Source of the DNA: Clostridium sp. CAG:288
GTDB taxonomy: Bacteria; Bacillota_I; Bacilli_A; RFN20; CAG-288
Assembly: GCA_000437395.1 (NCBI GenBank)
Contig: FR898170.1
Span: 1 to 51,774, forward strand
Direction: 5' to 3'
DNA length: 51,774 nucleotides
In this document: positions 12,005-30,047 of the stretch, one piece after another
How the letters are laid out: each line of letters opens with the position of its first letter
Position numbering within the stretch: the first letter of the stretch is position 1
Notes under the pieces: generated by a model
Seen by the model: only the letters and a program-made list of their open reading frames with translations
What the model was told of the DNA's origin: nothing
Databases searched by the model: none
Program-made: the position numbers and the translations under genes

Positions 12005-14611
12005 CTATTTCTTGGCTTCAAAGATAAATGTTGTTAGTGGTGATTCATTACCAGTAGCAAAGTCATATTCAACATTATCTTCAACTGTGACGATATTAGC
12101 TGTAAAGCTTCCATCTTTATTAATATCATAGACGACATTTTGTTTGATGACAGGCATATAGCTTCTAATATAGTAGTCATAATCTTCGTTTGTGACATTA
12201 AATGATGTAAAGGTAATTGTGTTATTTGCTTCATCAATTACAACATCACAATTAACTATATATTTAAATTCAGTTAAATCTTCAACGACAAACTTAGCTT
12301 GTGTTCTTGAAGTAAATGTCAATTCGACTGAAGCAACATCTTCACTATTTAAGAAACTATCTTCGTAGCAAGAATATGTTGTTTTAAGCATAGTATCTAC
12401 TATGGTGCTTGTCTCTTGCTTTTTAGCGACGTTAATTGTTAATGTTGTTGAGACTTTATCATAAAGCGTACTTGTAACTGTTATTGTTGCTTTTCCTTCT
12501 TTATCACTAACAAAGCTATATGAACCGTCAGCTTTCTTTGTTAAGTTTCCCACGCCTTCTAAGGTGACGTTTACTTCTTGTGAAGCGGTACTTGGGCTAA
12601 CGGCAAAGGTAAGATTATCAATAGAAGTGCCAACTGTTGTTTCTAATTCTTCAGTGACGACTTTATCACCAACTTTAGCTGTTATAGCTGTAGGTAAGAC
12701 TGTATCGACATTAACGGTTATTTCGCGTTTTACTCTATTTTTTAAAGAGTAGACTGTTAAGACTGCAACGCCAGCACCTTCAATTTTAATTGATCGACAT
12801 TCATCAGTGATTGAGGCAACGTTTGGATTGCTTGTTTCATCGATAATTAACGAATCAATTCTACTGTCTGCAAATTTAGGAGCTTGATCTAAGTAACTGA
12901 TATAGTATGTTTCACCTATTTCGTATTTCTTTGCTTCATAGCCTTTTTTGTCAGCAAATACTGGTGTGTATGAAGTAAAGTATAAATTATCTGGATCATA
13001 TTCGTTTACTTCTTGGGTATTAAGTGAACCAAATGTTTGTTTATATTCGGTCATATACATTTCTTTAGCAACAGGATTCTCTTGTAATAACTTCTTTTCT
13101 GTGAAGTCAAACATAGTGTTATCGTAAACGTTTGAAACAACTTTAATACTAGTTAAAACTCCATCTGTATTAAATGTATATTCACCATGGTTATAGTACA
13201 CTTCACCTAAAGTAACTGATGTTGGATATGCTTCGATGAAGAATGTATCAGCTATTATTACATTATCTTTTTCGACTATCTTGAGGTTCGAAGCTGCACC
13301 ACCACCAAAGTATAAAGGTACTGATCCATAACCAATTGAGTTTTCATATAAGCCGTTAAAGTGCATTTTAGCAATGTCTGATAATCCTTCGTGGCTATTC
13401 ATAATAAGCGTTGTAGATTGTTTGATAGCTTTTTCACGTGTGATTTGTGTCTTGCTATCACTGACAGATTCAACAATAGCTTTTTTACTTGGAGCTACTA
13501 TGTGTTGTCCATTATCATAGACTTGGAACTCATAGTAGTTTCCATCATCGCTCATACCTTTAAATAAGTGCGATGTGCTTGTTGAATCATAGCTTTCACT
13601 TGAACCGTATGGTGTATAAGTTACTGATGTATCTGTATCACCAACCATATATCTATCGGTAGTATCTTTATAAATTTTGAACTTTGTTGATTGAACTGCA
13701 TCTGTTCTATTATCGTTAATATCTAAAGTATTAAAGTGAAGGTTAACATCGTATGTATTTACTGTTAACTTCTTTTCTTTTTCTATTGAAGAATCAAGTT
13801 TGGCGATAACTTCACTGACATCTTTCTCACCTGGATTGACAACTTTTAAATAGTATTCTTTCTTAAGGTTTGTTCCTTTAACTTTTAATGTTAAAACTAC
13901 ACTACCAGTCCTTTTAAGTGGAGTGAGAGTATTTGTACTTGAATCAAAAGAACAGCAGCCATCAACGCTAAATGAAGCTTCTAAGACGTTATCAGCCTCA
14001 TCTGTTGAATTAAATGAAACTGTTAATGGATAGCTTTGGCCTAATTCTAATTTATAGAATGTATTTTTATTTGAAACTATGGTTTCAACACTGCTATCGA
14101 AATCTGCTGTAAAACTAGTAACTGTAGAAGCGACAACATTAAATGTTATTGAATCGCTTAACTCACCATCATCACTTACAGCGTAAATTGTACAATCGCC
14201 AGTACTTCTAGCTGTTATTAAGCCGTTAAATGAGACAGAGGCAACACTTTCGTTAGATGATCTGTAGTTTACTAATTTGTTAGTGGCATTTTTAGGTAAG
14301 ACTTCGACGCTAAGTTGTAAAACTTGTCCAACTTTTAAAGTTGTGATTGATTTATCCGTGATTGATATTGATGTGACATGAATATCGCTATCGACTTGTG
14401 TTGAACTACTACTACTTGATGAGCTAGTAGAAGAACTACTTGTTGAAGACGAAACAATCGTAGTGCTACTTACACTACTTGTACTACTGCTAATAACACT
14501 GCTATCACTACTTGTTGTTGAAGAAGGAGTGGATGATGTTATATCACCTTTTCCTTGGCAACTAACTAGTGAGAAAAGCATAACGCTTAAAACTAAAATT
14601 TTCTTTTTCAT
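12005..14611 (-). CDS. large surface lipoprotein with bacterial Ig-like (Big_2-type) domain
   Basis: 868 aa; lipobox LVSCQGKG; Ser-rich linker; segment VTSISITDKSITTLKVGQVLQLSVEVLPKNATNKLVNYRSSNESVASVS..GLITARSTGDCTIYAV resembles Big_2 fold. Confidence 0.6.
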   Translation of the reverse strand: MKKKILVLSVMLFSLVSCQGKGDITSSTPSSTTSSDSSVISSSTSSVSSTTIVSSSTSSSSTSSSSSSSSTQVDSDIHVTSISITDKSITTLKVGQVLQLSVEVLPKNATNKLVNYRSSNESVASVSFNGLITARSTGDCTIYAVSDDGELSDSITFNVVASTVTSFTADFDSSVETIVSNKNTFYKLELGQSYPLTVSFNSTDEADNVLEASFSVDGCCSFDSSTNTLTPLKRTGSVVLTLKVKGTNLKKEYYLKVVNPGEKDVSEVIAKLDSSIEKEKKLTVNTYDVNLHFNTLDINDNRTDAVQSTKFKIYKDTTDRYMVGDTDTSVTYTPYGSSESYDSTSTSHLFKGMSDDGNYYEFQVYDNGQHIVAPSKKAIVESVSDSKTQITREKAIKQSTTLIMNSHEGLSDIAKMHFNGLYENSIGYGSVPLYFGGGAASNLKIVEKDNVIIADTFFIEAYPTSVTLGEVYYNHGEYTFNTDGVLTSIKVVSNVYDNTMFDFTEKKLLQENPVAKEMYMTEYKQTFGSLNTQEVNEYDPDNLYFTSYTPVFADKKGYEAKKYEIGETYYISYLDQAPKFADSRIDSLIIDETSNPNVASITDECRSIKIEGAGVAVLTVYSLKNRVKREITVNVDTVLPTAITAKVGDKVVTEELETTVGTSIDNLTFAVSPSTASQEVNVTLEGVGNLTKKADGSYSFVSDKEGKATITVTSTLYDKVSTTLTINVAKKQETSTIVDTMLKTTYSCYEDSFLNSEDVASVELTFTSRTQAKFVVEDLTEFKYIVNCDVVIDEANNTITFTSFNVTNEDYDYYIRSYMPVIKQNVVYDINKDGSFTANIVTVEDNVEYDFATGNESPLTTFIFEAKK

Positions 14612-14845
14612 AATTTACTTTCCCCTCGTAAAAGATATAAAAATTATTATTACATTATATGCTAGTTTCAATTTTATTTCAATGTTTGCAACAAAATATT
14701 CTTACAATTTTAACTCTATTAAAATATTCATTAATTGCTATTAAATTTGATTATTTTAAAATTATGATTTCTTTTTAATAGAAAATAAATGTATTTTATT
14801 TTTATATTTGTTTTAACTAATATTCTTTCTTTACTTAAACTTTAC

Positions 14846-14887
14846 ATATAAAAAGTACTCTATACCACATAAATGGTACAGAGTACT
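14846..14887 (-). terminator. rho-independent terminator for lipoprotein gene 14903..17218
   Basis: imperfect inverted repeat agtactctatacc/ggtacagagtact with T-run on the minus strand. Confidence 0.5.
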
Positions 14888-14902
14888 AAATTTATTTAAT
14901 AA

Positions 14903-17218
14903 TTAGTTTAAAACGTAAATGTGAATAAACTCGTATGATCCATCATCATCGACAACGTCAATTCTTAATTTGTCTGTTTCGTTAACAAATGTAATATTGT
15001 CTTCTGTTGTATAGCCTAATGTTAATAAATAAGCTTTATATTTTTGAGAATAATCTTCTGAATATGTGTCTGTGGCGATTATAAAATATGGTTTGTCTTC
15101 CCAGTCACATAAGTAGAAATCAGCAAAGTAGTGATCTCTATTGAACTCTTCATCGTTTAAATATGGAATCTTTTTAGCAATTTCTTCACCATATGCTTTA
15201 ACTAATTCATCATATGTATTTGCATCTTCTTCCCAAGTTAATCTATCGCCTGAACCTGAATCTAAAGCTGCAATGGCTTTATCTAAGTTTGCTCTCATTG
15301 TTCCGTTAAGTTCAACTGGGCTATAGTCAAATGTAACTTCTTCTGTACCACCGACATAGGCAAAGTTCATAGAAGAAATCTTATCATCAGTGATAGTCAT
15401 TTCTAAACTTGAAGGATCGACTGTTAATGGATTATAGATATCACCGATTGAACGTCCAATATTGATAATATCACCTGTTGTTGTAAGTTTACCATCTTTG
15501 AGATTTAAGATTTCGCTTGCGATTGAGTAGTTAGCGATATCTTTAAATGTTTTGCTTACTGGATTTTTATCTAATGTAATATTGTTCTTTTCATCGTAGG
15601 TAAAGCTATATATTTTTCCATTCTTAGAATAGTAGCCTTTACCTAAGGATTCCATATTGTTACTGGTTCCATCATCGCTATCGACGAGATATGTTCCCTT
15701 TAAGTAGAAATCGGAACCTTTAACTATTTTTGTAAATCTACTTTTTTCCCAGGCTGAGTCTTTTTCAATGCTTGTAAAGACTGAATCTTCTTGATTTAAG
15801 TAGGATAAGTAGCTCTTGATTTGTGCATCGTTTTCAGAAGCGACTTTCTTTTCAGCACCTGTTATGACATTTGGTGTTGCTGCAACTCTACTATCTGCAT
15901 AACGATAGAAGTAGTAACCTGTCAATCTATCCATCATAATTCCTGTTGAGAATATGAGTTGTGTTACTTTTCCGTCTTCAACTTTAACTTTGATTGATTC
16001 GACTGGCCATTCTAAGAACTTTTTGTGTTGAGTTATAGAATAAGCTAAATCTGATGCATTACTACCTAAATATGTATAGTATTCATCACCTTCGAATTTT
16101 CTAAATTTACTAAGTTCAAATCCGTCTTTGTTGACAAAGTTGAAGTCATCAACAACTGTTGTTGTTCTTTCTTCTTCAACTTCGTTTTTACCATTTACAC
16201 CTGTAATGATGAGTGTTCCATCTTCATCGATTTTTTCATATGTATATGAAGTTGAAACGTTATCTTCGTTAATATCTGTGATTCTAAAATAGTCATCATA
16301 GATATCTAAGTTTGAGAATCCTTGTCTTTCGATCGAAGTATATTCATCTAAGAAGATATTGTCATAGATTGCTGATGTGAAAGAGACGTTACCAAATAAG
16401 TTGTCTGCTTTATTATCGAGTGTTTCTGTTGGAACTACATAGCTATTTAAATAATCTTCAACAGCATCTAATTTTGATGTTCCGATATTTTCAATAAAGA
16501 CAATAGCACCTGTTTCTGGTGTATAGTAATCGTTTTTAGAACTATCAAATCCTTGTAATTCTACTACTAATTCATCTGCGGCAGTGTAGAAACGTAATCT
16601 CTTGATGCCTGTAAAGTCTAATTGGCTAGCAAAAGCTTCAACTAATACTTCATCTGTTGTGTAGATTTCGTTATTATCACCTGAGAATTCTATTTCTCTT
16701 GTTGTATCGAAATCTTTGAACTTATTGACATAGTCTAAGCTTGTTAATTCTTGACCTGTAAGTTCATCGTTAAATGTTTGTCCTTTAACGTTAACCTTAT
16801 TCTCACTTGTTATTTCAAAATTATAAGCGTATTTAGTGGTGGAGTAAGTCTCTAATAGCATAGAGCCAGTATTTAAATATGCTGTGTAGAAATAGTTTTT
16901 AGTAATAACATCTGTAAAGTTGACGTTATTTATTTCATAAGTTAAAGAGAAGTTTCCTTCTTTTAATTTAGCGACTGATGAAAGAATAAATTCTTTGAGT
17001 GATGGTCCAGTTACACTTGAAGCTGAACTAGATGTCGATGTTGTTAAACTGCTGCTGCTTGAACTTGATGAGATGACACTTGATGTGGAACTACTTGTGC
17101 TTATAGAACTACTGCTACTACTACTTGATGAGCTAGTAGAAGAAGTGTTTGAATTACCGCCACAACTTGTCACTAATAAGCCTAAGGCTAGCAAAGATAA
17201 AACTTTTGTTGCTTTCAT
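14903..17218 (-). CDS. surface lipoprotein, function unknown
   Basis: 771 aa; lipobox LVTSCGGNSNTSS (same SCGGN motif as the SBP lipoproteins); ~50-aa Ser-rich linker. Confidence 0.6.
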   Translation of the reverse strand: MKATKVLSLLALGLLVTSCGGNSNTSSTSSSSSSSSSSISTSSSTSSVISSSSSSSSLTTSTSSSASSVTGPSLKEFILSSVAKLKEGNFSLTYEINNVNFTDVITKNYFYTAYLNTGSMLLETYSTTKYAYNFEITSENKVNVKGQTFNDELTGQELTSLDYVNKFKDFDTTREIEFSGDNNEIYTTDEVLVEAFASQLDFTGIKRLRFYTAADELVVELQGFDSSKNDYYTPETGAIVFIENIGTSKLDAVEDYLNSYVVPTETLDNKADNLFGNVSFTSAIYDNIFLDEYTSIERQGFSNLDIYDDYFRITDINEDNVSTSYTYEKIDEDGTLIITGVNGKNEVEEERTTTVVDDFNFVNKDGFELSKFRKFEGDEYYTYLGSNASDLAYSITQHKKFLEWPVESIKVKVEDGKVTQLIFSTGIMMDRLTGYYFYRYADSRVAATPNVITGAEKKVASENDAQIKSYLSYLNQEDSVFTSIEKDSAWEKSRFTKIVKGSDFYLKGTYLVDSDDGTSNNMESLGKGYYSKNGKIYSFTYDEKNNITLDKNPVSKTFKDIANYSIASEILNLKDGKLTTTGDIINIGRSIGDIYNPLTVDPSSLEMTITDDKISSMNFAYVGGTEEVTFDYSPVELNGTMRANLDKAIAALDSGSGDRLTWEEDANTYDELVKAYGEEIAKKIPYLNDEEFNRDHYFADFYLCDWEDKPYFIIATDTYSEDYSQKYKAYLLTLGYTTEDNITFVNETDKLRIDVVDDDGSYEFIHIYVLN

Positions 17219-17535
17219 GATATTCCCCCTGATTTAATTTAAATTATCTTATTTCAAAAATAATGAATTCTTTATGGTGTTAATACTATCAAAAAGATAA
17301 TTTCTTTGCAATTATTAAACGTTAAAACAGCTTAAAAAGTAAAATAAAACTGTATATATTTAAATTTCTTTACTATTTCTTTAAAATTTGAAAGCTATTA
17401 TGAAATTGTAATTATTTTTAACGTATTGTGTAATAATAGCTTAAAATTATCTATAAATATGTAACAATATATTATATTTTACCAAACAAAAAGCAATTGA
17501 ACATTTAATTCAATTGCTTAAGATATTAAATATTA

Positions 17536-17937
17536 TTAGTAAAGATTATTTCTAGAAAATAGTAATACTCTGTTAAAACTGTCTTTATCAAAATTAGGCC
17601 TGGCATTTGGATTATAAATATCATTTTCTGTTAAAGTAAAAACACGAATTAATGAATTGATATCACAGCATTCTTTGTAATTTAACTTATTTAATTCCTT
17701 TTTATAATAAATATCTATTTTGATACTATTACCTACCATAAATTTATTTAAGTCATTTTCAGTTTCTATTGAAGACCTATGACTTTCATAATATATTTGT
17801 GCATATTCATTTAAGTGTTTGAATAAAAAAGGTTTATGGTAAAGTCTTCTTAATTTATCTGCTAATATTTTTGGATTAAATGCATATAAACTATCTAATT
17901 GTTCTTGTTTTATAGTTTTATACCAACCTGCTGACAT
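17536..17937 (-). CDS. hypothetical protein, last gene of WYL-like/ARH operon
   Basis: 133 aa; overlaps upstream ORF by 28 nt; no recognised motif. Confidence 0.4.
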   Translation of the reverse strand: MSAGWYKTIKQEQLDSLYAFNPKILADKLRRLYHKPFLFKHLNEYAQIYYESHRSSIETENDLNKFMVGNSIKIDIYYKKELNKLNYKECCDINSLIRVFTLTENDIYNPNARPNFDKDSFNRVLLFSRNNLY

Positions 17938-19268
17938 ATGTCTTTATCCTCCATTAATTTTTGAAAATATTCAGCTGCCATTAATATATAATTTCTATCA
18001 TTTGGAATAAATGAATAAAGTATGTTATAGAATAATGCTTTTAAGAATCTATCATTTAATGAAGAATCTTTATATTTTTTTCTAACTTCATATATCATGT
18101 CTTCGCCTTTAGTTATTTCTCTAATATAAGCATTTTCAAAAATTGTTCTTTCATATTGAATTACTGGTTTAAATTCAGTTGCTAATTTATACATTAATTT
18201 TTCTGGAACGTTATCATATTTTCTAAATATTAAATAACATATTACAGATAGTATTCTTTTTTTGCTAATTCCTACTAAATCGATATTTGAATAAACTGTA
18301 TTATAAACGGTTTCAATTCTTAATTTATTGATATTTTTTAAAACATATTCAATTTTATCGCTTGAATTTTCTGTTAATAGAATTTCTTTATCAGGTGTAT
18401 CACTTTGTATGGAGATTTCAAAAGCTTCATTGCATATTTTATTTAATGTTTTTTTATCGTCGACATTAAAAATAAATGGAAGAGTGTTTTGAATATGCGA
18501 GTTTATTACGTCTTTTAAAGTAGTTTTATTTTTAGAATTTTTACATTCGTTAATTACAGTTTTAGCTGCATATATGGCATATAAAGATTCTTTAAGTATT
18601 GCTACTCTTTCAATAGAAATATTACCAATTTTCCCCTCTATTAATTTTGTTAGTGTATAAATATATTTATTAATTTCTTCTTTAGAGGATTTTTTTAAGA
18701 TTTCAATTTGTTGTTTGGTTTTATCTACTAATTTTTTTAAATTAATTTTTAAAGACTTTTCTTCTAAATCAGTATTCTTAATAACCAAATATCTATCATC
18801 TTCATCAAGGTCGACAAACGATGGTGTTTTAATTATAAAATAAAATGTTTCCATTAATTGAAAGCAAATTGGATTATTGCTTTTTTCTATAAATGAGCCA
18901 GTTGTTGCCCAACAATACTTTAAGTTTTTAATTGATATATTTTTTATTTTGCTTTTAGTTATTAATGAAATTATATCGTATTGAGTGTCTTCAGAAGTCT
19001 TATCTATTAAGTCCAAATTTAAAGCTTCTGTTTTGTGCATCTTTTCTTCGTTTGTCATTAACGTATTATTTAATTGAGGGGCTAAGCAGTTATGAAAACT
19101 AATATCTAATTCTTTTGATAATCTTTCTAATAATTTGTTATTTGAGCAACCATATTCGCCGATTAGTAATACAGGCTTTTCTAAAGCTAATGCTGCTAAT
19201 AATACAGGTTCTTTATATTCTAAATTTTGGAAGTTGAGGGATTCTATAAATAATGAATTTCCTGGCAT
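17910..19268 (-). CDS. hypothetical protein with degenerate P-loop-like N-terminus
   Basis: 452 aa; N-terminal PVLLIGEYGCSNNKLLERL resembles a degenerate Walker A (no GKT/S); 12-nt spacing to ARH gene. Confidence 0.45.
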   Translation of the reverse strand: MPGNSLFIESLNFQNLEYKEPVLLAALALEKPVLLIGEYGCSNNKLLERLSKELDISFHNCLAPQLNNTLMTNEEKMHKTEALNLDLIDKTSEDTQYDIISLITKSKIKNISIKNLKYCWATTGSFIEKSNNPICFQLMETFYFIIKTPSFVDLDEDDRYLVIKNTDLEEKSLKINLKKLVDKTKQQIEILKKSSKEEINKYIYTLTKLIEGKIGNISIERVAILKESLYAIYAAKTVINECKNSKNKTTLKDVINSHIQNTLPFIFNVDDKKTLNKICNEAFEISIQSDTPDKEILLTENSSDKIEYVLKNINKLRIETVYNTVYSNIDLVGISKKRILSVICYLIFRKYDNVPEKLMYKLATEFKPVIQYERTIFENAYIREITKGEDMIYEVRKKYKDSSLNDRFLKALFYNILYSFIPNDRNYILMAAEYFQKLMEDKDICQQVGIKL

Positions 19269-19280
19269 ATATACTCCTTT

Positions 19281-20138
19281 TTAGTAATTCTTATTTTCAA
19301 ATTTTTTGCTATTAATTGTTTTATGTAATTTTAATATTAAATTAACGTACTCTTTATCTATGAAATAATACATGAACATATCTTCGAATTTTGAAACTTT
19401 ATTTTTTTGATAATAAGCTTCGGCAATAGCACCAGCCATAGCTCCTGTTGTGTCACAATCACCACCTATAGCAATACAGTTTTTAATAGCATCTTCTAAT
19501 CCATGGGAGATTAAAAAACAATATATTGCTTGTGGAACACTCCCTGGACATGTAGCTTCAAATCTATATGTTTTAACTAGAGTTTCAAAATCTAATCCTT
19601 TTATTTCAGGATAATAGTCATTTATCATTCTGTCTCTTATTTCTTTCTTTGAGTACCCTTTTCTAGCTAAATAAACACATAATGCAACAGCTTCTGCGCC
19701 TTTAAGTCCTTCTTTATGATTATGCGTTATTTCTGATACTGTTTTTGATAATATTTTTACTTCTTCTTCACTATTTGCAATCCAACCAACAGATGAGATT
19801 CTCATTGCAGAGCCATTTCCAAAAGAGTTATATGGCTTTCTATCTGGATTAAGACACCATCTAACAAACAAGTCGCCATAGCCGACAAACGGATGGTTTT
19901 TAAAAGTTAATACAAATTCGTTAGTTAAGTCTTTTTGAATTTTTTCTAATTCTTTTTGTGTGTATTTAATTGGATAGTGTTTTAATAAGACTTTGGCAAC
20001 AGCGATTGTTAAATATGAGTCATCTGTCATTTTATTGTTTGGATTAAATGCGTTGAATTTTTTGGTTTTAATTGGATTGAAATCATATTGTGATCCAACC
20101 ATATCACCTATTATTGCTCCTAACATATTTTTCTCCAA
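19281..20138 (-). CDS. ADP-ribosylglycohydrolase (ARH/DraG) family protein
   Basis: 285 aa; family motifs GAIIGDMVGS, TDDSYLTIAVA, GNGSAMRISSVGW, GGDCDTTGAMAGAIAEAYY (di-metal ARH fold). Confidence 0.75.
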   Translation of the reverse strand: MEKNMLGAIIGDMVGSQYDFNPIKTKKFNAFNPNNKMTDDSYLTIAVAKVLLKHYPIKYTQKELEKIQKDLTNEFVLTFKNHPFVGYGDLFVRWCLNPDRKPYNSFGNGSAMRISSVGWIANSEEEVKILSKTVSEITHNHKEGLKGAEAVALCVYLARKGYSKKEIRDRMINDYYPEIKGLDFETLVKTYRFEATCPGSVPQAIYCFLISHGLEDAIKNCIAIGGDCDTTGAMAGAIAEAYYQKNKVSKFEDMFMYYFIDKEYVNLILKLHKTINSKKFENKNY

Positions 20139-20172
20139 TCTAAAAGCATATTTATTTTTTTAGTTTTATACT

Positions 20173-21582
20173 TTATTTTAAATGTCTAGCATATCTTTTA
20201 ATAAAAAGTTTTTTACCATTAAAATCAGTGTTAGAATATGTCTTTTTTCTTTCTTCACCTTTATATGAACAAGTTTTTATAATTTCAATTTTTTCTCTAT
20301 CACTTAAATAATAGCGGTATTTTATGGCTTGTTCTAAATAGTATGAAGCTAATTCATTATTTAAAGAATCAGGTCCAACTATTTCAATATTTTGATTAAT
20401 CATGTCATCGGAAATAATCCAAGATTTAAGTGAATAGAAATTTATACGCATGTTTACTATTACTAGATTATTATCTGATTTATTCTTTCCTTCGATAGGT
20501 ATAAGATAAGACTGTTTTAATTTTGTGGGCATAATAAAAACTTTTGATACATGCACATCCTTATTTATTCTAAAATCAGCACATAGTTTATAGTTTAAAG
20601 GTGTTCCAAAATAACTTTCAAATGAGTTTTTTATGTATTCTAAATTTTTCTTTAAAAAATAGAAAGAACAATCAACAGCAGCCCCATTAGTAGGCAAGAT
20701 ATTTTGGTCAATATATTCATCTATTGTTCCAAAATGTTTTTTGTTGAATGGCGAAATATTATTAAACCATTGATTTATATCTCTGTCATCAGCCATATCT
20801 TCAATTAATATTTTGTCGTTAGATTCGAAAGGAATATCTAATAATTCAATAGGTTCACATATTATTTTTGGTTTTTCATTTCCTAATGTAGTTATTTGAA
20901 GGAGAATAGCCCAAGGTTTATTTTGATATTCCTTAATCTTATAAACTTTGTACCATTGTTTTGTAACTACTGTTTCTACATATTTATGATTTGTATTTTT
21001 GCTATTTTTAGCGTTTCTAAAATTAAAAACTGTTCTAGTGCTATTAATGCATATTAATTTGTTTTCTTTTAAAGCTTGATTAATAAGATTAATTTTTCTA
21101 TCACTTTCTTTATTAAATTTTTTTACGTTATTTGTTAAATTGCTAGCTTCTTTTAAATATCTATCTCGATTAAATCTATTTGCAAAGTTATCTAATATTC
21201 TTTCAATTAAGAAATCAGTGTCTTCATCAGCAGTATATTTGTCATTTTTAATAGCAGCGATGATTTTAATCACTTGCTCTTCTGATAAATAAAATTTTTG
21301 TTCTACATAATATTTTCCGCTATCAGTTGTTTCAATAATAAATGGAACCTTATCGGAAAATTTATCTGATATTTCTTTTAAAAAGTCTAAAGACTCTTTT
21401 ATTCTTTGTCTTTTTACTTCATTACCTGATGTTTTAGTAGAATCGTATTTTAGTCCAAATTCTGTGGCATACCGACATATTTTTTGTTGAGTTGCTGGAT
21501 GTTCTTCATCAGTAAAATTTAATAAATAGTCTAAAGTTATTAATAGTTCTATTCTATGTATTTGTTTATCTGTTAAAGCCAT
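20173..21582 (-). CDS. putative HTH-WYL-WCX type transcriptional regulator (BrxR/CapW-like), first gene of operon
   Basis: 469 aa; N-terminal wHTH-like segment; central KQWYKVYK...KPWAILLQI...IICEPIELLDI reminiscent of a WYL domain; C-terminal NIEIVGPDSLNNELASYYLEQAIKY resembles the WCX domain ending V.VLEP..LR; assignment by eye only. Confidence 0.3.
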   Translation of the reverse strand: MALTDKQIHRIELLITLDYLLNFTDEEHPATQQKICRYATEFGLKYDSTKTSGNEVKRQRIKESLDFLKEISDKFSDKVPFIIETTDSGKYYVEQKFYLSEEQVIKIIAAIKNDKYTADEDTDFLIERILDNFANRFNRDRYLKEASNLTNNVKKFNKESDRKINLINQALKENKLICINSTRTVFNFRNAKNSKNTNHKYVETVVTKQWYKVYKIKEYQNKPWAILLQITTLGNEKPKIICEPIELLDIPFESNDKILIEDMADDRDINQWFNNISPFNKKHFGTIDEYIDQNILPTNGAAVDCSFYFLKKNLEYIKNSFESYFGTPLNYKLCADFRINKDVHVSKVFIMPTKLKQSYLIPIEGKNKSDNNLVIVNMRINFYSLKSWIISDDMINQNIEIVGPDSLNNELASYYLEQAIKYRYYLSDREKIEIIKTCSYKGEERKKTYSNTDFNGKKLFIKRYARHLK

Positions 21583-21643: not shown

Positions 21644-21844
21644 TTATTTGTTGATAATATAAACTTCGAAATCTTTATTGCATCTTTTGCATCTGTGTTT
21701 ACCCATAGATTTTCTAGTATTTCTATTAACTACAGTTCTATATTTGATATATTCGTTGACATGACCACAATATGGACATCTTGCATACCATTTAACATCA
21801 GTATCACTAGTTTGCTCTACAATTGCGTTTTCTGCAAAAATCAT
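21644..21844 (-). CDS. small zinc-ribbon protein
   Basis: 66 aa; CPYCGH...CKRCN four-Cys motif. Confidence 0.4.
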   Translation of the reverse strand: MIFAENAIVEQTSDTDVKWYARCPYCGHVNEYIKYRTVVNRNTRKSMGKHRCKRCNKDFEVYIINK

Positions 21845-22002
21845 ATTATTTTATCCTCCATAATTTTGTTTTTCCTAGGAACAATTACTATTATAGAGAA
21901 AAATTATATATAATTGTGAAAATGGTTACTTTTGTACTAATATAAGAACAAAATATATGATTTTATAATGGCAAATGAATAAAATTATAAGCTGTACTAA
22001 AT

Positions 22003-22329
22003 CTATAATTTATTATATTTAGTAGAAACACCTTTGGCTTTTGACACTGGATATTTCTTCTTTGTTTTTTCTAATTTATCTAAGACAATTTCATGTATGT
22101 CTAAATCTAACTTTGAAGCCATTTGGATGCAATAGTTAATAACATCTGCTAACTCTTCTTTAACTGCATTAATGTCATAATTATCATCAGACCATTGGAA
22201 GCATTCTAAAAGTTCATTAGCTTCTATTGAAATAGATTTAGCTAAATTACCTAGTGAATGGAATTGATCCCAATCTCTTTCTGTTACAAACTCGTCAATT
22301 TTATTTTTTAAATCAACTAATGAATCCAT
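22003..22329 (-). CDS. MazG-like nucleotide pyrophosphohydrolase (small all-alpha NTP-PPase)
   Basis: 108 aa; EANELLE...EELADVINY motif pair typical of MazG/YpjD-type proteins. Confidence 0.6.
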   Translation of the reverse strand: MDSLVDLKNKIDEFVTERDWDQFHSLGNLAKSISIEANELLECFQWSDDNYDINAVKEELADVINYCIQMASKLDLDIHEIVLDKLEKTKKKYPVSKAKGVSTKYNKL

Positions 22330-22422
22330 GGCAAAATCCTCTTTTACTTAAATTTACTATTAGTAATTCTACTATAAAAATAAATTAATAAGTAAAATTA
22401 TTAAGTGGTTTCAGCAAATATT

Positions 22423-24771
22423 TTATTTCATATTTAATTTAACTTTTCTAATAATTGAATTAAAATTTTCCCATCCACCAGTAGATAAATTATAATCGTG
22501 ATAATTTTTACCTATAAATATATAGAACTGTGAGCCTTGTTTAACAACAATTCCACCAATGACCTTAGGTGCTTTCCCGCGATTTGAATTAGTATTTGAA
22601 ATAAAATCAGCTAATGCGTTTGATTTAGTTATTGTATCTTCAATTCTTAAATTTATTGGTTTTGTGTCAAAAATGCCTACAGTTCCATCTTTAAATTTAA
22701 CAATAAAATCTGGCTGAAAAGTATTCATTCCGTTATTGTATGATATGCCAAAATTAATTTTCATAAGTTCGGCTCCATTTTCCCAATACCATTCAACTTC
22801 TTCTTGAATATCCAAATATGCTAAAAAGTCTCTTTCAAGATTATTATCAGGATTATTATTTTCATCTTTTAAAACGAATAGTGGGTGATATAAAGATTTT
22901 ATAGCTGGAATTAATTCTGTATGTGTTTCTAATGAGTATGGTCTTGTTTCATCGATTTTAAAATGATATTTTTCACCTTTTCTTCCAGCTTCTGTAGAAA
23001 GTAATTCTCTAAAATTACGAGTTGCTTCAGATAAAATTTCAGAGAAAATGTTCTTATTATTAACAACTAATTTCATAATGCATTTAACCTTATCAGAACG
23101 AGGAAAAACGTTGTAAAAAATACTAAAAGCATTAATTATTGCTGAATTGATAGGTGATTTGGATCTTACATAAGCTAATCCATTCAAATTTTCTTTAATT
23201 AAGGAATTATAAGATGCTTGTATATCGTTTTCAGACATTTTAACTATTGCAGAATCATTAAATATACTTTCATCTTTATCTACATCAGTCGAATTAATTC
23301 TTGTTTCTTCAATAATTTCATCAGAAGCAATTAATGTTAGATTCATACCTTTTTCTATTAATTTACAACTAAGACTATCAACTAATGGTGGATATTTATC
23401 ACTATCTTTTAATTCAAAAAACCTCATAAATGATTTTAAAAAGAAATCATTAAATCGTGAATCTGCAGAGTTATAATCTCCTTGTCTAGATCTATAAAAA
23501 GAAGTTAATTGAGTTTGCTCCCATACAATATTTCTATTATAAGGTTCTATCATTTTTGAAAATTCTGTTTTAATTTTATTTGGATTATATGTATCTGATT
23601 TTCTTTCAAAAGTTGCTAAATTGGTAAAAATATATGCATTATCTAATAAATAATCATTATAAGAATGCGCTTCAGCAGTTCGAAGAATCCTTCCTATGGT
23701 TTGTATCTCAAATGTTTCAGATTTTCCATCTCTAAACTTTATTAAAATATGAGCTCTTGGGCAATCCCATCCAGTAGCTACTGAAGTTTTAAAAACTAAA
23801 TATTCAGTAATATCATTATTCTTTTTTATTGCTTGTTTATCAAAATTTGCTTTATTGTCACACCAAAATTTTAGTTTGCCATTATCTTCTGTAATATCTC
23901 TATCTCTTAAGAAATCAGTAATAACAAGTTTTTTTGCTTCTCCTTCATCAACATTTGGAATTTGAATTAATACTAATGGATTAACAGGTATGCCTAATTC
24001 TTTATATCTAGAAATAATTTGATTTCTTTTTTCAAATCCTTTTTCTAAAATTAATATTTCACTATCTTTTTCTGCTAATGATAAATCTATTTTAGATATA
24101 CCTTCATTAACAAATACGTCTTCTTTTATCATTCCTTCATCTATAACTTTTTGTGGTTCTATCTCAACATCGATATGATCACTGAGTGGTGTGGCTGACA
24201 TTTCTATAGTTATATTAGGAATAATTATAGTTTCTCTAAATTCATGAATTCGTGCTTTTTGTGATGAGCCAATATGGGATTCATCAACAACAAGAATTAC
24301 TTTTGTGCCATTTTTCTTTGTTTGTTCAATTACATCAATAAAGTTCATTCCTTCTTGGTCTTTCATCAAATTATTAGCCCATTTATCAGTTTCTCTGTCT
24401 TTTTGAATAAGTTTTTCCCAGTTAATGAAAACAATTTCTTTATTTTTTATAAATCTTCTTGAACCAAAGAAGTCGTCTTCGAGTAATGAGCATACAGGAT
24501 TTCCTCCTAAATATTTTTTTACAGCTTCTAATGATTGCTTATGAAGTTCTCCTTTTCCAGGGCAAGCCCAAATTACGCAAAAATTTATTTCGTTATTTTC
24601 CTCTGCAATTTCTTCAAAAACAGAGGAAGCCATAAATGTTTTTCCTGATCCAGTAGGGGCTTTAAAAATTATTGATTTTTTATTCTTTGCATTTAAATAA
24701 TTGTTTATATATTCTTTTAATTCATCGACAGCATCTCGTTGATATGGTTTTAATGAGAAAATCATGTTCAT
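22423..24771 (-). CDS. res: Type III restriction enzyme, Res subunit (SF2 helicase + endonuclease)
   Basis: 782 aa; helicase motif I KAPTGSGKTF, motif II LVVDESH; immediately downstream of and overlapping (ATGA) the mod gene. Confidence 0.75.
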   Translation of the reverse strand: MNMIFSLKPYQRDAVDELKEYINNYLNAKNKKSIIFKAPTGSGKTFMASSVFEEIAEENNEINFCVIWACPGKGELHKQSLEAVKKYLGGNPVCSLLEDDFFGSRRFIKNKEIVFINWEKLIQKDRETDKWANNLMKDQEGMNFIDVIEQTKKNGTKVILVVDESHIGSSQKARIHEFRETIIIPNITIEMSATPLSDHIDVEIEPQKVIDEGMIKEDVFVNEGISKIDLSLAEKDSEILILEKGFEKRNQIISRYKELGIPVNPLVLIQIPNVDEGEAKKLVITDFLRDRDITEDNGKLKFWCDNKANFDKQAIKKNNDITEYLVFKTSVATGWDCPRAHILIKFRDGKSETFEIQTIGRILRTAEAHSYNDYLLDNAYIFTNLATFERKSDTYNPNKIKTEFSKMIEPYNRNIVWEQTQLTSFYRSRQGDYNSADSRFNDFFLKSFMRFFELKDSDKYPPLVDSLSCKLIEKGMNLTLIASDEIIEETRINSTDVDKDESIFNDSAIVKMSENDIQASYNSLIKENLNGLAYVRSKSPINSAIINAFSIFYNVFPRSDKVKCIMKLVVNNKNIFSEILSEATRNFRELLSTEAGRKGEKYHFKIDETRPYSLETHTELIPAIKSLYHPLFVLKDENNNPDNNLERDFLAYLDIQEEVEWYWENGAELMKINFGISYNNGMNTFQPDFIVKFKDGTVGIFDTKPINLRIEDTITKSNALADFISNTNSNRGKAPKVIGGIVVKQGSQFYIFIGKNYHDYNLSTGGWENFNSIIRKVKLNMK

Positions 24772-26537
24772 TCACCTCTTTTTATTTCTTCAACAATTTC
24801 TTTATAAATTTCATATATTTTAGATGGTATTGGTTTAATGATTACATCTTTATCATTAATTAATGTTGGATCGACATCATTGTTTGAAGAATAAATATAA
24901 ACAATTTTTGATCCAATTGTTTTTAAAATTCTTTGTTTGAATTCATCAAACTTTTCTTTTGAATAGTAATCATTAAATATAAATAAATGTTTATTTTTTG
25001 ATTTGTAATGTGATGAATAATCATTTCTTTCAACTTCTTCAAAAATATTTTCCGCTATACACAAAAGTCCATCAACTTTTTCTACTAAACTATATCGTGC
25101 TTGCTCAGTGTTGTTTTCATCCTTAACAAAATCTGTTTTAAAATAAAATAAATTATTTGGTAAACCTTCACTATATTTTGTTGCATCAGGCCTAATTCCA
25201 CTTATGACTGTTTTTAATCGAGGATAAGTTACGCCAGTGCAAATATTATTTTCATTATTAGTGCATAGAATAAATTTACGATGACCGCCATCTTCTTTAT
25301 TTAGCTCCATTACTGCTTGTCCAGTTGTTCCAGAACCAGCAAAAAAATCAAGGACTGTAAAATTGTTATTATGTTGTTTTAAATCGTAATTATAATATAA
25401 ACTTAATAAATATTTTATCAATGAAACTGGTTTAGGATAAGAAAATATATTTTGTGTAATTATATTACTTAATTCGTTACTACCCTCTTCATTTACACCT
25501 ACTTTTGTTTTAAATCTGTTGATTGAACATAAAGGGTTATTAGTATTTGTAAAAATTAATTGTTTTGGAGATTCATTTGTTGTTTTTCCTAAATGGTAAA
25601 CTGTTCTAATTGCAAAACCATCAGATTTAATCCAAAATGTTGTTCCTTTGTTTATTTCTTCATCAATTGTTTTTTGCGACCATCTAGATTTGAATTTTAA
25701 AATTAGATCATTTGCATTTAGACTATTCTTAATTATGACAGGTTTTATAAGAAGATATGATTCATTCTTAGAAGTTTTATATGTTCCATCTTTTAAATTA
25801 AATTTAACTGTTCCTTTTTTGAATGTTAATATGTTTTCTTTATTGCTTGCGTTAAATAATGGCGCATCTATTAAATCAGTTTTAACTTTCTCAACTAATA
25901 ATTCTTTTAAAGATCCATTATCGCTATTAAATAACTTCTTAGCGTAACATAAAATATATTCGCAATTAGAATAGTAATTTATCTTTTGTCTTCCAAAATG
26001 TTGTGTTTTTTCCCAACAAAAGTTTGTTATGAAATTATTTTCACCAAAAATAGAATCACACAAGAGCTTTAAATTTGCTTGTTCTTTATCATCAATAGAA
26101 ATAAAAATTATACCATCTTTTTTCAATAGTTCTTTTGCAAGCACAAGTCTTTTTGATATCATATTTAGCCACTTTGAATGTCTATAACAATCTTCTTTAT
26201 CGACAAATTTATCGTTATAAGAAAAATCATTATGCCCTGTGTTATACGGAGGATCAATGTAAATAATATCAATAGTTTCTTTAGCCACAAAATTTAGAGC
26301 AGTCAAAGCATGATAATTGTCGCCTTCAATAAGAATATTATTTTCTCCTTCATTACATATTATTTTTTTATCTTCTTCTTGAACTAATAAAGGAATATTA
26401 TTTTCACAATGTAAAACAACATCTTCTTTTGTATCTTCTTTATCCCATACTAATCCATATTTGTTTAGAAATTTCAATTTAGATTCTAATTCAATTATTC
26501 TTTTTTCTAAATCTTCGTAGCTTTTTTTCTTATCCAT
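24768..26537 (-). CDS. mod: Type III restriction-modification N6-adenine DNA methyltransferase, Mod subunit
   Basis: 589 aa; motif IV IYIDPPYNTG precedes motif I VLDFFAGSGTTG (beta-class order typical of Type III Mod); no separate specificity gene. Confidence 0.8.
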   Translation of the reverse strand: MDKKKSYEDLEKRIIELESKLKFLNKYGLVWDKEDTKEDVVLHCENNIPLLVQEEDKKIICNEGENNILIEGDNYHALTALNFVAKETIDIIYIDPPYNTGHNDFSYNDKFVDKEDCYRHSKWLNMISKRLVLAKELLKKDGIIFISIDDKEQANLKLLCDSIFGENNFITNFCWEKTQHFGRQKINYYSNCEYILCYAKKLFNSDNGSLKELLVEKVKTDLIDAPLFNASNKENILTFKKGTVKFNLKDGTYKTSKNESYLLIKPVIIKNSLNANDLILKFKSRWSQKTIDEEINKGTTFWIKSDGFAIRTVYHLGKTTNESPKQLIFTNTNNPLCSINRFKTKVGVNEEGSNELSNIITQNIFSYPKPVSLIKYLLSLYYNYDLKQHNNNFTVLDFFAGSGTTGQAVMELNKEDGGHRKFILCTNNENNICTGVTYPRLKTVISGIRPDATKYSEGLPNNLFYFKTDFVKDENNTEQARYSLVEKVDGLLCIAENIFEEVERNDYSSHYKSKNKHLFIFNDYYSKEKFDEFKQRILKTIGSKIVYIYSSNNDVDPTLINDKDVIIKPIPSKIYEIYKEIVEEIKRGE

Positions 26538-26558
26538 TTATATTATTGCTCCATTTTT

Positions 26559-26667
26559 GTACACCTTTAAAAACTTCTAAAAATGGACAAATTTTGACTA
26601 AAAAATGAAGATTTAATGAGAATTTATGCTATAATTTTAAATATGAACTAGGTACTATAAGGTGTAC
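26559..26667. repeat. 9-bp inverted repeat pair (gtacacctt / aaggtgtac) in the mod-recombinase divergent intergenic region; possible recombinase site or operator
   Basis: gtacacctt at 26559-26567 and its exact reverse complement at 26659-26667; second copy sits in a local palindrome ggtac..gtacc. Confidence 0.3.
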
Positions 26668-26709
26668 CTTTATAAACTACCAATAATAATTGAAATTTGA
26701 CTTTATAAC

Positions 26710-27348: not shown

Positions 27349-27380
27349 CCTAATATGCTATAGGTTATCTTGTTAACATT
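27343..27380. terminator. bidirectional terminator between convergent recombinase and DUF4276-like genes
   Basis: 10-bp stem agataaccta/taggttatct overlapping the recombinase stop codon, followed by T-rich tract. Confidence 0.55.
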
Positions 27381-29321: not shown

Positions 29322-30047
29322 ATGGAAGAAGAAATAAAAAAACTATATGAGATTATAAACGATAGTAAAAGAATTGTTTTCTTTTCTGGTGCTGGCGTTT
29401 CAGTTAGTTCAGGCATTCCTGATTTTAGAGGTGAACATGGTATATATAAATATGCTCCAGAAGAAATGATTTCACATCATTTCTTTTTAGAACATACTAA
29501 AGAATTTTTTGATTTTTACCTCAAACACTTGGTATTTTTAGATGCTAATGAAAATGAATGTCATAAAGCTATAGCTTATTTAGAAAAAGTTGGTAAAGTT
29601 GAAGCAGTTGTTACCCAGAATATTGATGGGTTACATCAAAAAGCTGGATCTAAAAAGGTTATAGAATTACATGGAAGTATTCATAGAAATCACTGTATGA
29701 AATGTCATAAGTTTTACGATATAAAAGATATGAAGTTTACCCCTATTCCATATTGTTCTTGTGGCGGTATTATTAAACCTGATGTAGTTTTATATGAAGA
29801 AAGTTTAAATGAAGAAGATATTACTAATACAATTAGAGCTATAAGCTCTTGCGATACTCTTATTGTTATAGGTACTTCTTTAAGTGTTTATCCTGCAGCT
29901 TCGTTTATTGATTTCTTTAGAGGTAAACACCTTGTTGTCATTAATTTAGGACAAACTAGAAATAGAGTAGATGCTGAACTAATTATTGATGGTAAAGTTG
30001 AAAATTACTTAAATATGGAAAATATAAGAAAATATTTAAAAAAATGA
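29322..30047 (+). CDS. cobB: NAD-dependent protein deacylase, Sir2 (sirtuin) family
   Basis: 241 aa; GAGVSVSSGIPDFRG NAD-binding motif, TQNIDGLH, Cys4 zinc ribbon CMKCHK...CSCGG, catalytic H in IELHGS. Confidence 0.8.
   Translation: MEEEIKKLYEIINDSKRIVFFSGAGVSVSSGIPDFRGEHGIYKYAPEEMISHHFFLEHTKEFFDFYLKHLVFLDANENECHKAIAYLEKVGKVEAVVTQNIDGLHQKAGSKKVIELHGSIHRNHCMKCHKFYDIKDMKFTPIPYCSCGGIIKPDVVLYEESLNEEDITNTIRAISSCDTLIVIGTSLSVYPAASFIDFFRGKHLVVINLGQTRNRVDAELIIDGKVENYLNMENIRKYLKK

Follow-up and report, generated by a model that had tools for sequence, protein, structure and literature searches.

A predicted WYL-type regulator, an ADP-ribosylglycohydrolase and a putative MoxR-vWA relic in a candidate defense cassette of gut Bacilli

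Introduction

Operons that are built around an ADP-ribosylglycohydrolase (ARG or ARH) and lack an ADP-ribosyltransferase (ART) were predicted by Iyer, Burroughs, Anantharaman and Aravind in 2022 to be anti-viral systems that counter ADP-ribosylation (PMC9503650, section 3.8). These ARG-centric systems combine the hydrolase with a WYL or Nudix regulator (~42%), a phosphatase (~55%), vWA or other chaperones and variable effectors, and the coupling of ARG to a phosphatase was described in the same work (PMC9503650). Here we analyze a minus-strand operon in a 51,774-nucleotide stretch of DNA from Clostridium sp. CAG:288 (contig FR898170.1, hereafter the window), in which an ARH gene follows the gene for a 469-aa putative regulator and precedes two genes for proteins of 452 and 133 aa. 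On balance, we lean toward reading this locus as a regulated mosaic cassette that consists of a WYL-type regulator, an ARH cargo and a relic MoxR-vWA module, and in which ARH would counter the ADP-ribosylation imposed by an invader.

A sequence-only reading of the window had proposed the four genes as an undescribed defense or toxin-reversal module. 'Undescribed' is too strong, as WYL- and Nudix-headed ARG operons without an ART are among the 2022 predictions (PMC9503650). What is new here is a regulator family that databases do not recognize, standing at the head of a system of the predicted type whose cargo has partly decayed.

Results

Organization of the operon

The operon and its borders comprise the following features, given in window coordinates:

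21644–21844, minus strand: 66-aa zinc-ribbon open reading frame (ORF) with two CxxC pairs and its own GGAGG ribosome-binding site
20173–21582, minus strand: 469-aa predicted divergent WYL-type transcription factor (ORF and predicted structure)
19281–20126, minus strand: ADP-ribosylglycohydrolase (ARH), 281 aa from the ATG at 20126 (PF03747 match and motifs)
17910–19268, minus strand: 452-aa degenerate MoxR-type AAA+ protein, a predicted pseudo-ATPase (homology to AAA_5/AAA_3/bpMoxR proteins)
17536–17937, minus strand: 133-aa small partner of the MoxR-type protein (predicted model that matches no solved fold)
17491–17519, minus strand: intrinsic terminator closing the operon (12-bp stem, 5-nt loop, T-run)

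The four larger ORFs stand where the sequence-only reading had placed them, with gaps of 34 and 12 nt and an overlap of 28 nt. The first of these gaps is 34 or 46 nt depending on the start of ARH: a TTG codon gives 285 aa (19281–20138), and gene callers on public contigs take the ATG at 20126, which is preceded by a GGAG-type ribosome-binding site. The coding frames of the four genes contain zero internal stops; the remaining five frames contain 9 to 81 in this DNA of 23–30% GC. The hairpin directly 3' of the 133-aa gene is the sole terminator-like structure between 17300 and 22500, and the scan of that interval predicted no terminators between the operon genes. An Rfam search of the whole window returned zero matches.

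The 469-aa gene had been taken as the head of the operon. It is the first large gene, but the 66-aa zinc-ribbon ORF, which the earlier reading did not list, lies 61 nt upstream and travels with the four genes; it probably opens the transcription unit. In strain L002, the neighboring Mod-Res-MazG block is swapped for a Dam-like methylase and a DUF7226 gene, and the 66-aa ORF and the four genes are unchanged. These five genes therefore form one unit, and the restriction-modification (R-M) genes a separate cassette. Similarity of the 66-aa protein to the Lar restriction-alleviation family is weak (20.3 bits, below the cutoff of 39.6), and the ORF was not found upstream of other members of the regulator family, making it lineage-specific.

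The cargo enzyme is a predicted active ADP-ribosylglycohydrolase

As the sequence-only reading had recognized, ARH is a genuine ADP-ribosylglycohydrolase of the ARH/ARG/DraG superfamily, and its intact motifs predict that it is active. It matches PF03747 with E = 1.8e-33 (116.9 bits against a cutoff of 26.2), and the GD, TDD, THNH and GGDxDT motifs, which supply the binuclear-metal and TH catalytic residues, are present and invariant across its subclade. The strongest profile match is to the phage family phrog_6572 (PHROG 6572, 8.7e-47), and the closest solved relatives in the PDB are ARH3 enzymes (7e-14).

Several ARH enzymes act as antidotes, including DraG with DraT, Tri1 with Tre1, and the ARH-type DarG3 of DarHTG. 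By these precedents, the window ARH could protect against an ADP-ribosyltransferase toxin that competitors deliver or whose gene lies at another site in the genome, which we consider very unlikely. Scans with Pfam, PADLOC, NCBIfam and PHROGs found no ART, DarT, macrodomain, TIR or Sir2 gene in the operon, in agreement with the earlier reading, and the related clusters examined also lack ART, DarT, Sir2 and TIR genes, although antitoxin genes normally adjoin their toxin genes. Furthermore, ARH scores far below the NCBIfam equivalog cutoffs for DraG (TIGR02662, 51 against 337) and Tri1 (NF041672, 24 against 490). An antidote of the DraG/Tri1/DarG type was rejected as the principal explanation because no transferase is present and these equivalog scores fail. 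Likewise, the proposed toxin-reversal or immunity module has nothing to reverse within the locus, because no toxin or ART partner is present there.

The 469-aa protein is predicted to be a divergent WYL-type regulator

The sequence-only reading had assigned HTH-, WYL- and WCX-like segments to the 469-aa protein and had proposed that hidden Markov model (HMM) searches decide the matter. Those searches returned no WYL or HTH match: no Pfam family was found at E ≤ 0.1, and no WYL family at E ≤ 1 in PADLOC, NCBIfam or PHROGs. Nine of ten other family members likewise had no Pfam match at E ≤ 0.01, the tenth showing a weak P-loop in a C-terminal extension, and a profile of 31 members found no PDB sequence at E ≤ 1. 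The fold, on the other hand, is borne out by prediction. AlphaFold2, run on the family alignment, gave a model (mean pLDDT 83.5) with a winged helix-turn-helix (wHTH, residues 1–96), a helical linker (101–172), a WYL-like beta-barrel (175–261) and a WCX-like alpha/beta region (~300–420). The top 23 Foldseek matches of this model are all WYL regulators, among them DriD (4.6e-7), PafBC (5.5e-6), WYL1 (1.9e-4), CapW (7.8e-3) and BrxR (1.3e-2). We conclude that the protein is an HTH-WYL-WCX regulator whose sequence has diverged beyond the reach of current profiles.

Some members of the family are longer. In P0029 (599 aa), the C-terminal extension is P-loop NTPase-like, with weak matches to AAA_16 and AAA_22, and P0018, P0033, P0035, P0038, P0041, P0046, P0050 and P0051 also carry C-terminal extensions of 100–200 aa.

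Among the structural matches, DriD and PafBC, which are activators that sense single-stranded DNA (ssDNA), outrank the defense repressors. This ranking would suit a housekeeping or stress function, with the regulator acting as a DriD/PafBC-like DNA-damage activator and ARH clearing O-acyl-ADP-ribose or endogenous ADP-ribosylation from a CobB-type sirtuin. The ARH3 enzymes to which ARH is nearest hydrolyze O-acyl-ADP-ribose (PMC9503650), a CobB-type deacylase is encoded at 29322–30047, and ARH-SIR2 fusions occur in the ARH clade. We nevertheless regard such a function as improbable. The deacylase gene, the nearest Sir2 gene to the operon, lies 9 kb away on the opposite strand, and in strain L002 it is split. 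Nor do members of the ARH subclade share a conserved gene neighborhood, which had been raised earlier as a possibility for a housekeeping draG-like gene. Finally, members of the regulator family occur solely in variable islands, beside toxin-antitoxin, R-M and PADLOC-type genes, and their cargo differs from genome to genome.

The regulator family precedes variable, defense-like cargo

The family comprises 56 clusters at 90% identity, of which 0 are annotated. Thirty loci were found in species-representative genomes, mostly in metagenome-assembled genomes (MAGs) from gut and rumen named 'Bacilli bacterium' and in a few otherwise-named bins. The gene next downstream of the regulator is on the same strand in approximately 24 of the 26 loci where it is visible, often 10–130 nt away, and these downstream genes span at least 10 unrelated families. 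They include soluble FtsH-like AAA+/M41 proteases with similarity to IetA, PDC-S01-type AAA_14/DUF4143 ATPases, leucine-rich repeat (LRR) proteins, LRR-UvrD fusions, large proteins with weak DNA_pol3_alpha matches and several unannotated proteins. HipA/HipB-like modules, a GajB-like helicase and a PDC-M26A-like protein are found as further neighbors. The earlier idea of a WYL-like regulator at the head of defense-type cargo is therefore upheld at the level of the family, which precedes variable, defense-like genes. The BrxR family is likewise reported to co-localize with diverse defense systems (PMC9122601).

The proteins with weak DNA_pol3_alpha matches (400–1500 aa) form a family seen at no fewer than six regulator loci; in three or more of these, including L014, L016 and L025, the gene immediately follows the regulator. 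This family has no PADLOC match; examples are L014:11361-12581, L016:2745-4673, L025:11427-13364 and L032:3538-8109.

Regulator and ARH are recurrently linked

In four further independent loci (L023, L028, L135/L136 and L138/L139), a close relative of the window ARH, 61–68% identical to it, lies on the same strand approximately 0–4 kb downstream of a gene of the regulator family. Regulators of the ARH-linked loci are 36–43% identical to the window copy. A more distant regulator-ARH pair occurs in L101. The association is real and frequent, and it is not obligate. In two of these loci, ARH directly follows a gene encoding FtsK-gamma and a HAD_SAK_2 phosphatase, at a distance of 62 nt in L023 and with an overlap in L028; in L048, the ARH follows a calcineurin-like phosphoesterase.

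The wider ARH clade shares the N-terminus MLGAIIGDxVGSxYEF and has more than 541 metagenome matches. Its members are found with a calcineurin-like phosphoesterase and HNH, or with a UDG-like gene, 13 of 88 ARH-clade loci encode ARH-HsdM fusions in Type I R-M operons, and one encodes a fusion to SIR2. The HsdM and SIR2 fusions therefore place the clade in conflict systems.

The ARH-HsdM fusion is approximately 805 aa long, with ADP_ribosyl_GH at residues 1–233 followed by HsdM_N and N6_Mtase (for example L125:657-3077; the others are in L061, L080, L086, L092, L102, L105, L107, L113, L115, L117, L122 and L124). It is followed by a second, plain hsdM, then hsdS and, where the contig is long enough, hsdR. 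We know of no earlier account in which an ADP-ribosylhydrolase is joined to a methylase subunit of a Type I system. An ARH-SIR2 fusion and an ARH-DUF6508 fusion of the same clade are encoded at L087:1189-2754 and L051:4786-6372, respectively.

The phage family at the top of the ARH profile matches raises the possibility that the operon is counter-defense cargo of a mobile element, with ARH neutralizing an ADP-ribosylating host defense such as DarT or CmdT. Eight viral contigs carry ARH relatives, a serine recombinase lies nearby and adjoins a strain-variable cassette, and phages are known to carry orphan antitoxin-like enzymes (PMC11825919). However, the viral ARHs share only 37–43% identity over the greater part of their length, and in the window we found no phage structural, replication or conjugation genes. 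Above all, searches of IMG/VR, GenBank phages and PLSDB plasmids found no member of the regulator family, and because it is absent from these phage and plasmid collections counter-defense by a mobile element is disfavored; we hold it to be highly improbable.

The 452-aa and 133-aa genes derive from a separate MoxR-type module

Neither the 452-aa nor the 133-aa protein has a match in Pfam, PADLOC, NCBIfam or PHROGs. The 452-aa protein is homologous over 81–97% of its length to proteins bearing AAA_5, AAA_3 or bpMoxR domains, from which it has diverged strongly: it is 21–31% identical to these relatives, the five closest of which are ~60–74% identical among themselves. The Walker A segment reads GEYGCSNN against GKHGSAKS in the relatives and is followed by a deletion of 13 residues, Walker B reads NLDLIDKT against FIDELNRT, and a further conserved motif reads CFQLMETF against DPALADRF. 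Judged from these substitutions, the protein is a predicted MoxR-type pseudo-ATPase on a long branch, and the degenerate P-loop noticed in the first reading is indeed the lost Walker A of a MoxR-type AAA+ protein. For the 133-aa protein, which the sequence-only reading had proposed to check for an ART or NADase fold, a confident structure model was obtained, but it matches no solved fold.

In four other loci, the MoxR-type gene and its small partner are followed by a gene for a ~440-aa protein and then by one for a divergent MetK-like protein (132 bits against a cutoff of 309 for the metK model). Two motifs of the ~440-aa protein, HELYHxxLGH (zincin, N-terminal) and DVSGS (MIDAS, C-terminal), are the sole basis for reading it as a metallopeptidase-vWA fusion, since the profile match on record, to VWA_CoxE, is faint. 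The module is:

L023:14815-19065; L025:2387-6756; L043:1104-5360; L044:97-4379: four genes, encoding an active MoxR-type AAA+ protein, a ~140-aa small protein, a ~440-aa HExxH/vWA protein and a MetK-like protein

This layout matches the MoxR-vWA-centric conflict systems (PMC7159879; PMC12839542), and the four proteins in L023 have no significant match in PADLOC 2.0. The module could be a conflict system in its own right, with the MetK-like protein as effector or decoy.

A tblastn search of the window found no remnant of the peptidase-vWA, MetK-like, FtsH-like or HAD genes. With its ATPase motifs destroyed and its peptidase-vWA and MetK-like members missing, the module is therefore represented in the window by a truncated, catalytically dead remnant, made up of the 452-aa and 133-aa genes. 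The view of the four window genes as one module is not supported by this comparison, since two of them belong to a separate module of MoxR/vWA type. Homologues of all four do occur together elsewhere in the window order, but only once, in L023, and there within a larger cluster of eight genes in the order regulator, FtsH-like, HAD, ARH, MoxR, small protein, peptidase-vWA and MetK-like. The window operon resembles a cut-down form of that eight-gene arrangement.

It may also be that the four genes are an integrated system, in which ARH is recruited to its targets, or gated, by a non-catalytic sensor or adaptor formed from the inactive MoxR-type protein and the 133-aa protein. The shared order of the ARH, MoxR-type and small genes in L023, the tight spacing (12-nt gap, 28-nt overlap) and the single terminator are consistent with this idea. 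Both degenerate genes are stop-free at 23–24% GC while their other frames contain 9–65 stops, the 452-aa protein keeps the non-catalytic residues that are invariant in its family, and inactive enzyme domains serving as sensors or decoys are a known theme of MoxR-vWA systems (PMC7159879). Against it, no ARH was detected with the MoxR-type/small pair in L025 (where 2.4 kb upstream is covered) or L043, nor downstream of the pair in L044 (where only the downstream side is covered), and in all three the pair comes with peptidase-vWA and MetK-like genes that are absent from the window. Conversely, the ARH subclade accompanies the regulator without homologues of the 452-aa and 133-aa proteins in L028, L135 and L138, and the complete arrangement is seen in one species-level lineage only. 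We therefore consider integration unlikely. Its fullest form is distinctly improbable: the dead MoxR-type protein and the 133-aa protein would be a target-recognition or gating unit for ARH and, together with the WYL-type sensor, make up a four- or five-component inducible de-ADP-ribosylation immunity specific to gut Bacilli.

The operon lies in a defense-island-like region

Proteins identical to those of the window are found on 15–16 human-gut metagenome contigs. No copy falls below 99.3% DNA identity, which means that they represent one species-level lineage. The setting is a defense-island-like region of this uncultured human-gut Bacilli species.

The operon had been placed at a breakpoint in GC content. 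The drop is real, from ~0.31–0.34 at 15–17 kb to 0.22–0.25 at 17–19 kb with the step at ~17.3 kb, but low GC runs on to the end of the window and is therefore not confined to the operon. Similarly, the Type III R-M system said to adjoin the operon is present (Mod/Res pair at 22423–26537; Pfam N6_N4_Mtase 2.8e-33, ResIII 2.2e-19), but a MazG-like gene and the 66-aa ORF intervene.

Upstream neighbors comprise the MazG-like gene, the Type III Res and Mod genes, a serine recombinase, an AAA_21 ATPase with a small partner, the CobB-type Sir2 gene and a Band_7 gene. A further 20 kb encodes DUF2971, DUF3800 and DUF4238 proteins, a faint Abi_2 match, an RNase III-like protein, and a PIN/DUF3368 protein with an HTH-M78 partner. 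The defense-type setting claimed for the operon is thus borne out by the content of the neighboring genes.

Several other observations concern the flanks. Between the serine recombinase and the 66-aa ORF, window positions 21845–26709 correspond to L002:5251-6535, an apparent cassette swap beside a recombinase. Positions 27373–51592 (GC 22–29%) are packed with defense-associated or unknown genes, including the AAA_21 gene with its 178-aa partner and a Cyclophil_like2 gene, and the gene content of this stretch varies between contigs L045 and L046. Below the GC step, the minus strand of 12005–17218 encodes two very large lipoprotein-like proteins, of 868 and 771 aa, in which the N-terminal linkers are long and rich in Ser and Thr; the 771-aa gene has an internal stop in one copy (L009).

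Discussion

A model for the cassette

Gene order, the terminator, the folds, the loss of motifs, the missing genes, the variable cargo and the recurrent regulator-ARH linkage are directly supported. From these, and by analogy with described systems, we infer how regulation by the 469-aa protein, its ligand, the substrate of ARH and an anti-phage effect may fit together. A dimer of the 469-aa protein probably binds its own promoter region, as DriD, PafBC, BrxR and CapW would suggest. Its WYL domain may bind a ligand derived from infection or damage, for example ssDNA or a nucleotide related to ADP-ribose, and the activity of the regulator would change in response. The stand-alone ARH would most likely strip ADP-ribose that an invader's transferase has placed on host macromolecules; alternatively, it could destroy an ADP-ribose-derived molecule. 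Because no transferase is encoded with ARH, it is most plausible that the enzyme acts on ADP-ribosylation imposed from outside.

The 452-aa and 133-aa proteins would originally have been the MoxR ATPase and the small subunit of the separate four-gene module rather than partners of ARH. In the window species, this module appears to have lost the peptidase-vWA gene, the MetK-like gene and both ATPase motifs. The two remaining genes may have been retained as intact ORFs because they serve as non-catalytic accessories, or they may be relics that are not yet broken.

A number of results weigh against a mosaic cassette with a WYL-type regulator and an ARH that counters invaders. The exact four-gene arrangement is limited to one species-level lineage, whose copies differ by at most four changed codons per gene, too few for a within-species dN/dS of the degenerate genes. 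Linkage of regulator and ARH was found in 2 of approximately 14 genome loci whose downstream sequence was long enough and in 2 of 3 additional loci, or about 4 of 17 besides the window. No regulator-family member accompanies the ARH of L047 in ~10.6 kb (1.7 kb of it upstream of ARH) or that of L048 in 8 kb of sequence to each side. Since no HMM recognizes the regulator, its WYL assignment rests on predicted structure, and the hexamers and inverted repeats upstream of its gene, sought as promoters and operators, match no better than those of shuffled AT-rich sequence. Some probability also belongs to a housekeeping role in which ARH hydrolyzes O-acyl-ADP-ribose from the CobB-type sirtuin 9 kb away. 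Finally, we found no experimental test of any ARG-centric system in the literature.

Significance

If this reading is correct, WYL-type regulators that are invisible to HMMs mark defense cargo in abundant, uncultured Bacilli of gut and rumen. Because several of the large cargo proteins are unannotated, a profile of the regulator family could guide the way to new defense genes. The pairing of a regulator with one enzyme would also be a compact natural test of the 2022 prediction that stand-alone ARG hydrolases act against phage ADP-ribosyltransferases, and the comparison would expose an intact module of MoxR, small protein, metallopeptidase-vWA and MetK-like genes along with the ARH-HsdM fusions of Type I R-M operons. 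No major concept is altered, as the parts and their logic were already known.

Comparison with described systems

Like the WYL factors DriD, PafBC, BrxR, CapW and WYL1, the 469-aa protein combines, at the level of the fold, a wHTH, a WYL beta-barrel and a WCX-like C-terminal domain, and like the BrxR family its relatives head co-directional, variable cargo of defense type. Unlike them, the 469-aa family lacks detectable sequence similarity to the WYL and HTH models of Pfam, NCBIfam and PADLOC or to any PDB sequence. It is also longer (~430–470 against ~290–330 aa), with a helical linker of ~70 residues and insertions, and some members have additional C-terminal extensions that are P-loop-like. 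So far, the family is limited to MAGs of the gut and rumen Bacilli type.

The 452-aa protein shares descent from a MoxR-type AAA+ protein with the MoxR-vWA ternary systems (Kaur et al. 2020, PMC7159879). In its relatives, MoxR is paired with a vWA-metallopeptidase fusion and a small third component, and FtsH-like AAA-proteases are common in the neighborhoods. In contrast, the window has no vWA partner and has lost Walker A and B, both of which the relatives keep. The 133-aa protein is too small for an iSTAND or beta-propeller component and resembles no solved fold. A MetK-like fourth gene such as that of the relatives was not found described in PMC7159879.

With DraG, Tri1 and DarG3, ARH has in common its superfamily and metal-binding motifs; it differs from them in having no cognate transferase (DraT, Tre1 or that of DarHTG) and in its low DraG and Tri1 equivalog scores.

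The ARG-centric systems were reported from Actinobacteria, Planctomycetes and Proteobacteria, unlike the window locus in low-GC gut Bacilli. The window also lacks a coupled phosphatase and a vWA chaperone, although L023, L028 and L048 have the phosphatase and L023 the vWA-metallopeptidase; neither an ARPP nor a TY-chaperone was found in the window by Pfam or PADLOC, and its sole chaperone-type part is the dead MoxR with its small partner. The likenesses are extensive: an ARG/ARH without a coupled ART or sirtuin stands under a one-component regulator that is WYL-type at the fold level, relatives add a HAD or calcineurin-like phosphatase and chaperone-type vWA/AAA+ genes, and both show variable accreted modules and fast evolution. 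It is the ARG-centric counter-ADP-ribosylation systems, with components and logic known from comparative genomics, that the window operon matches best.

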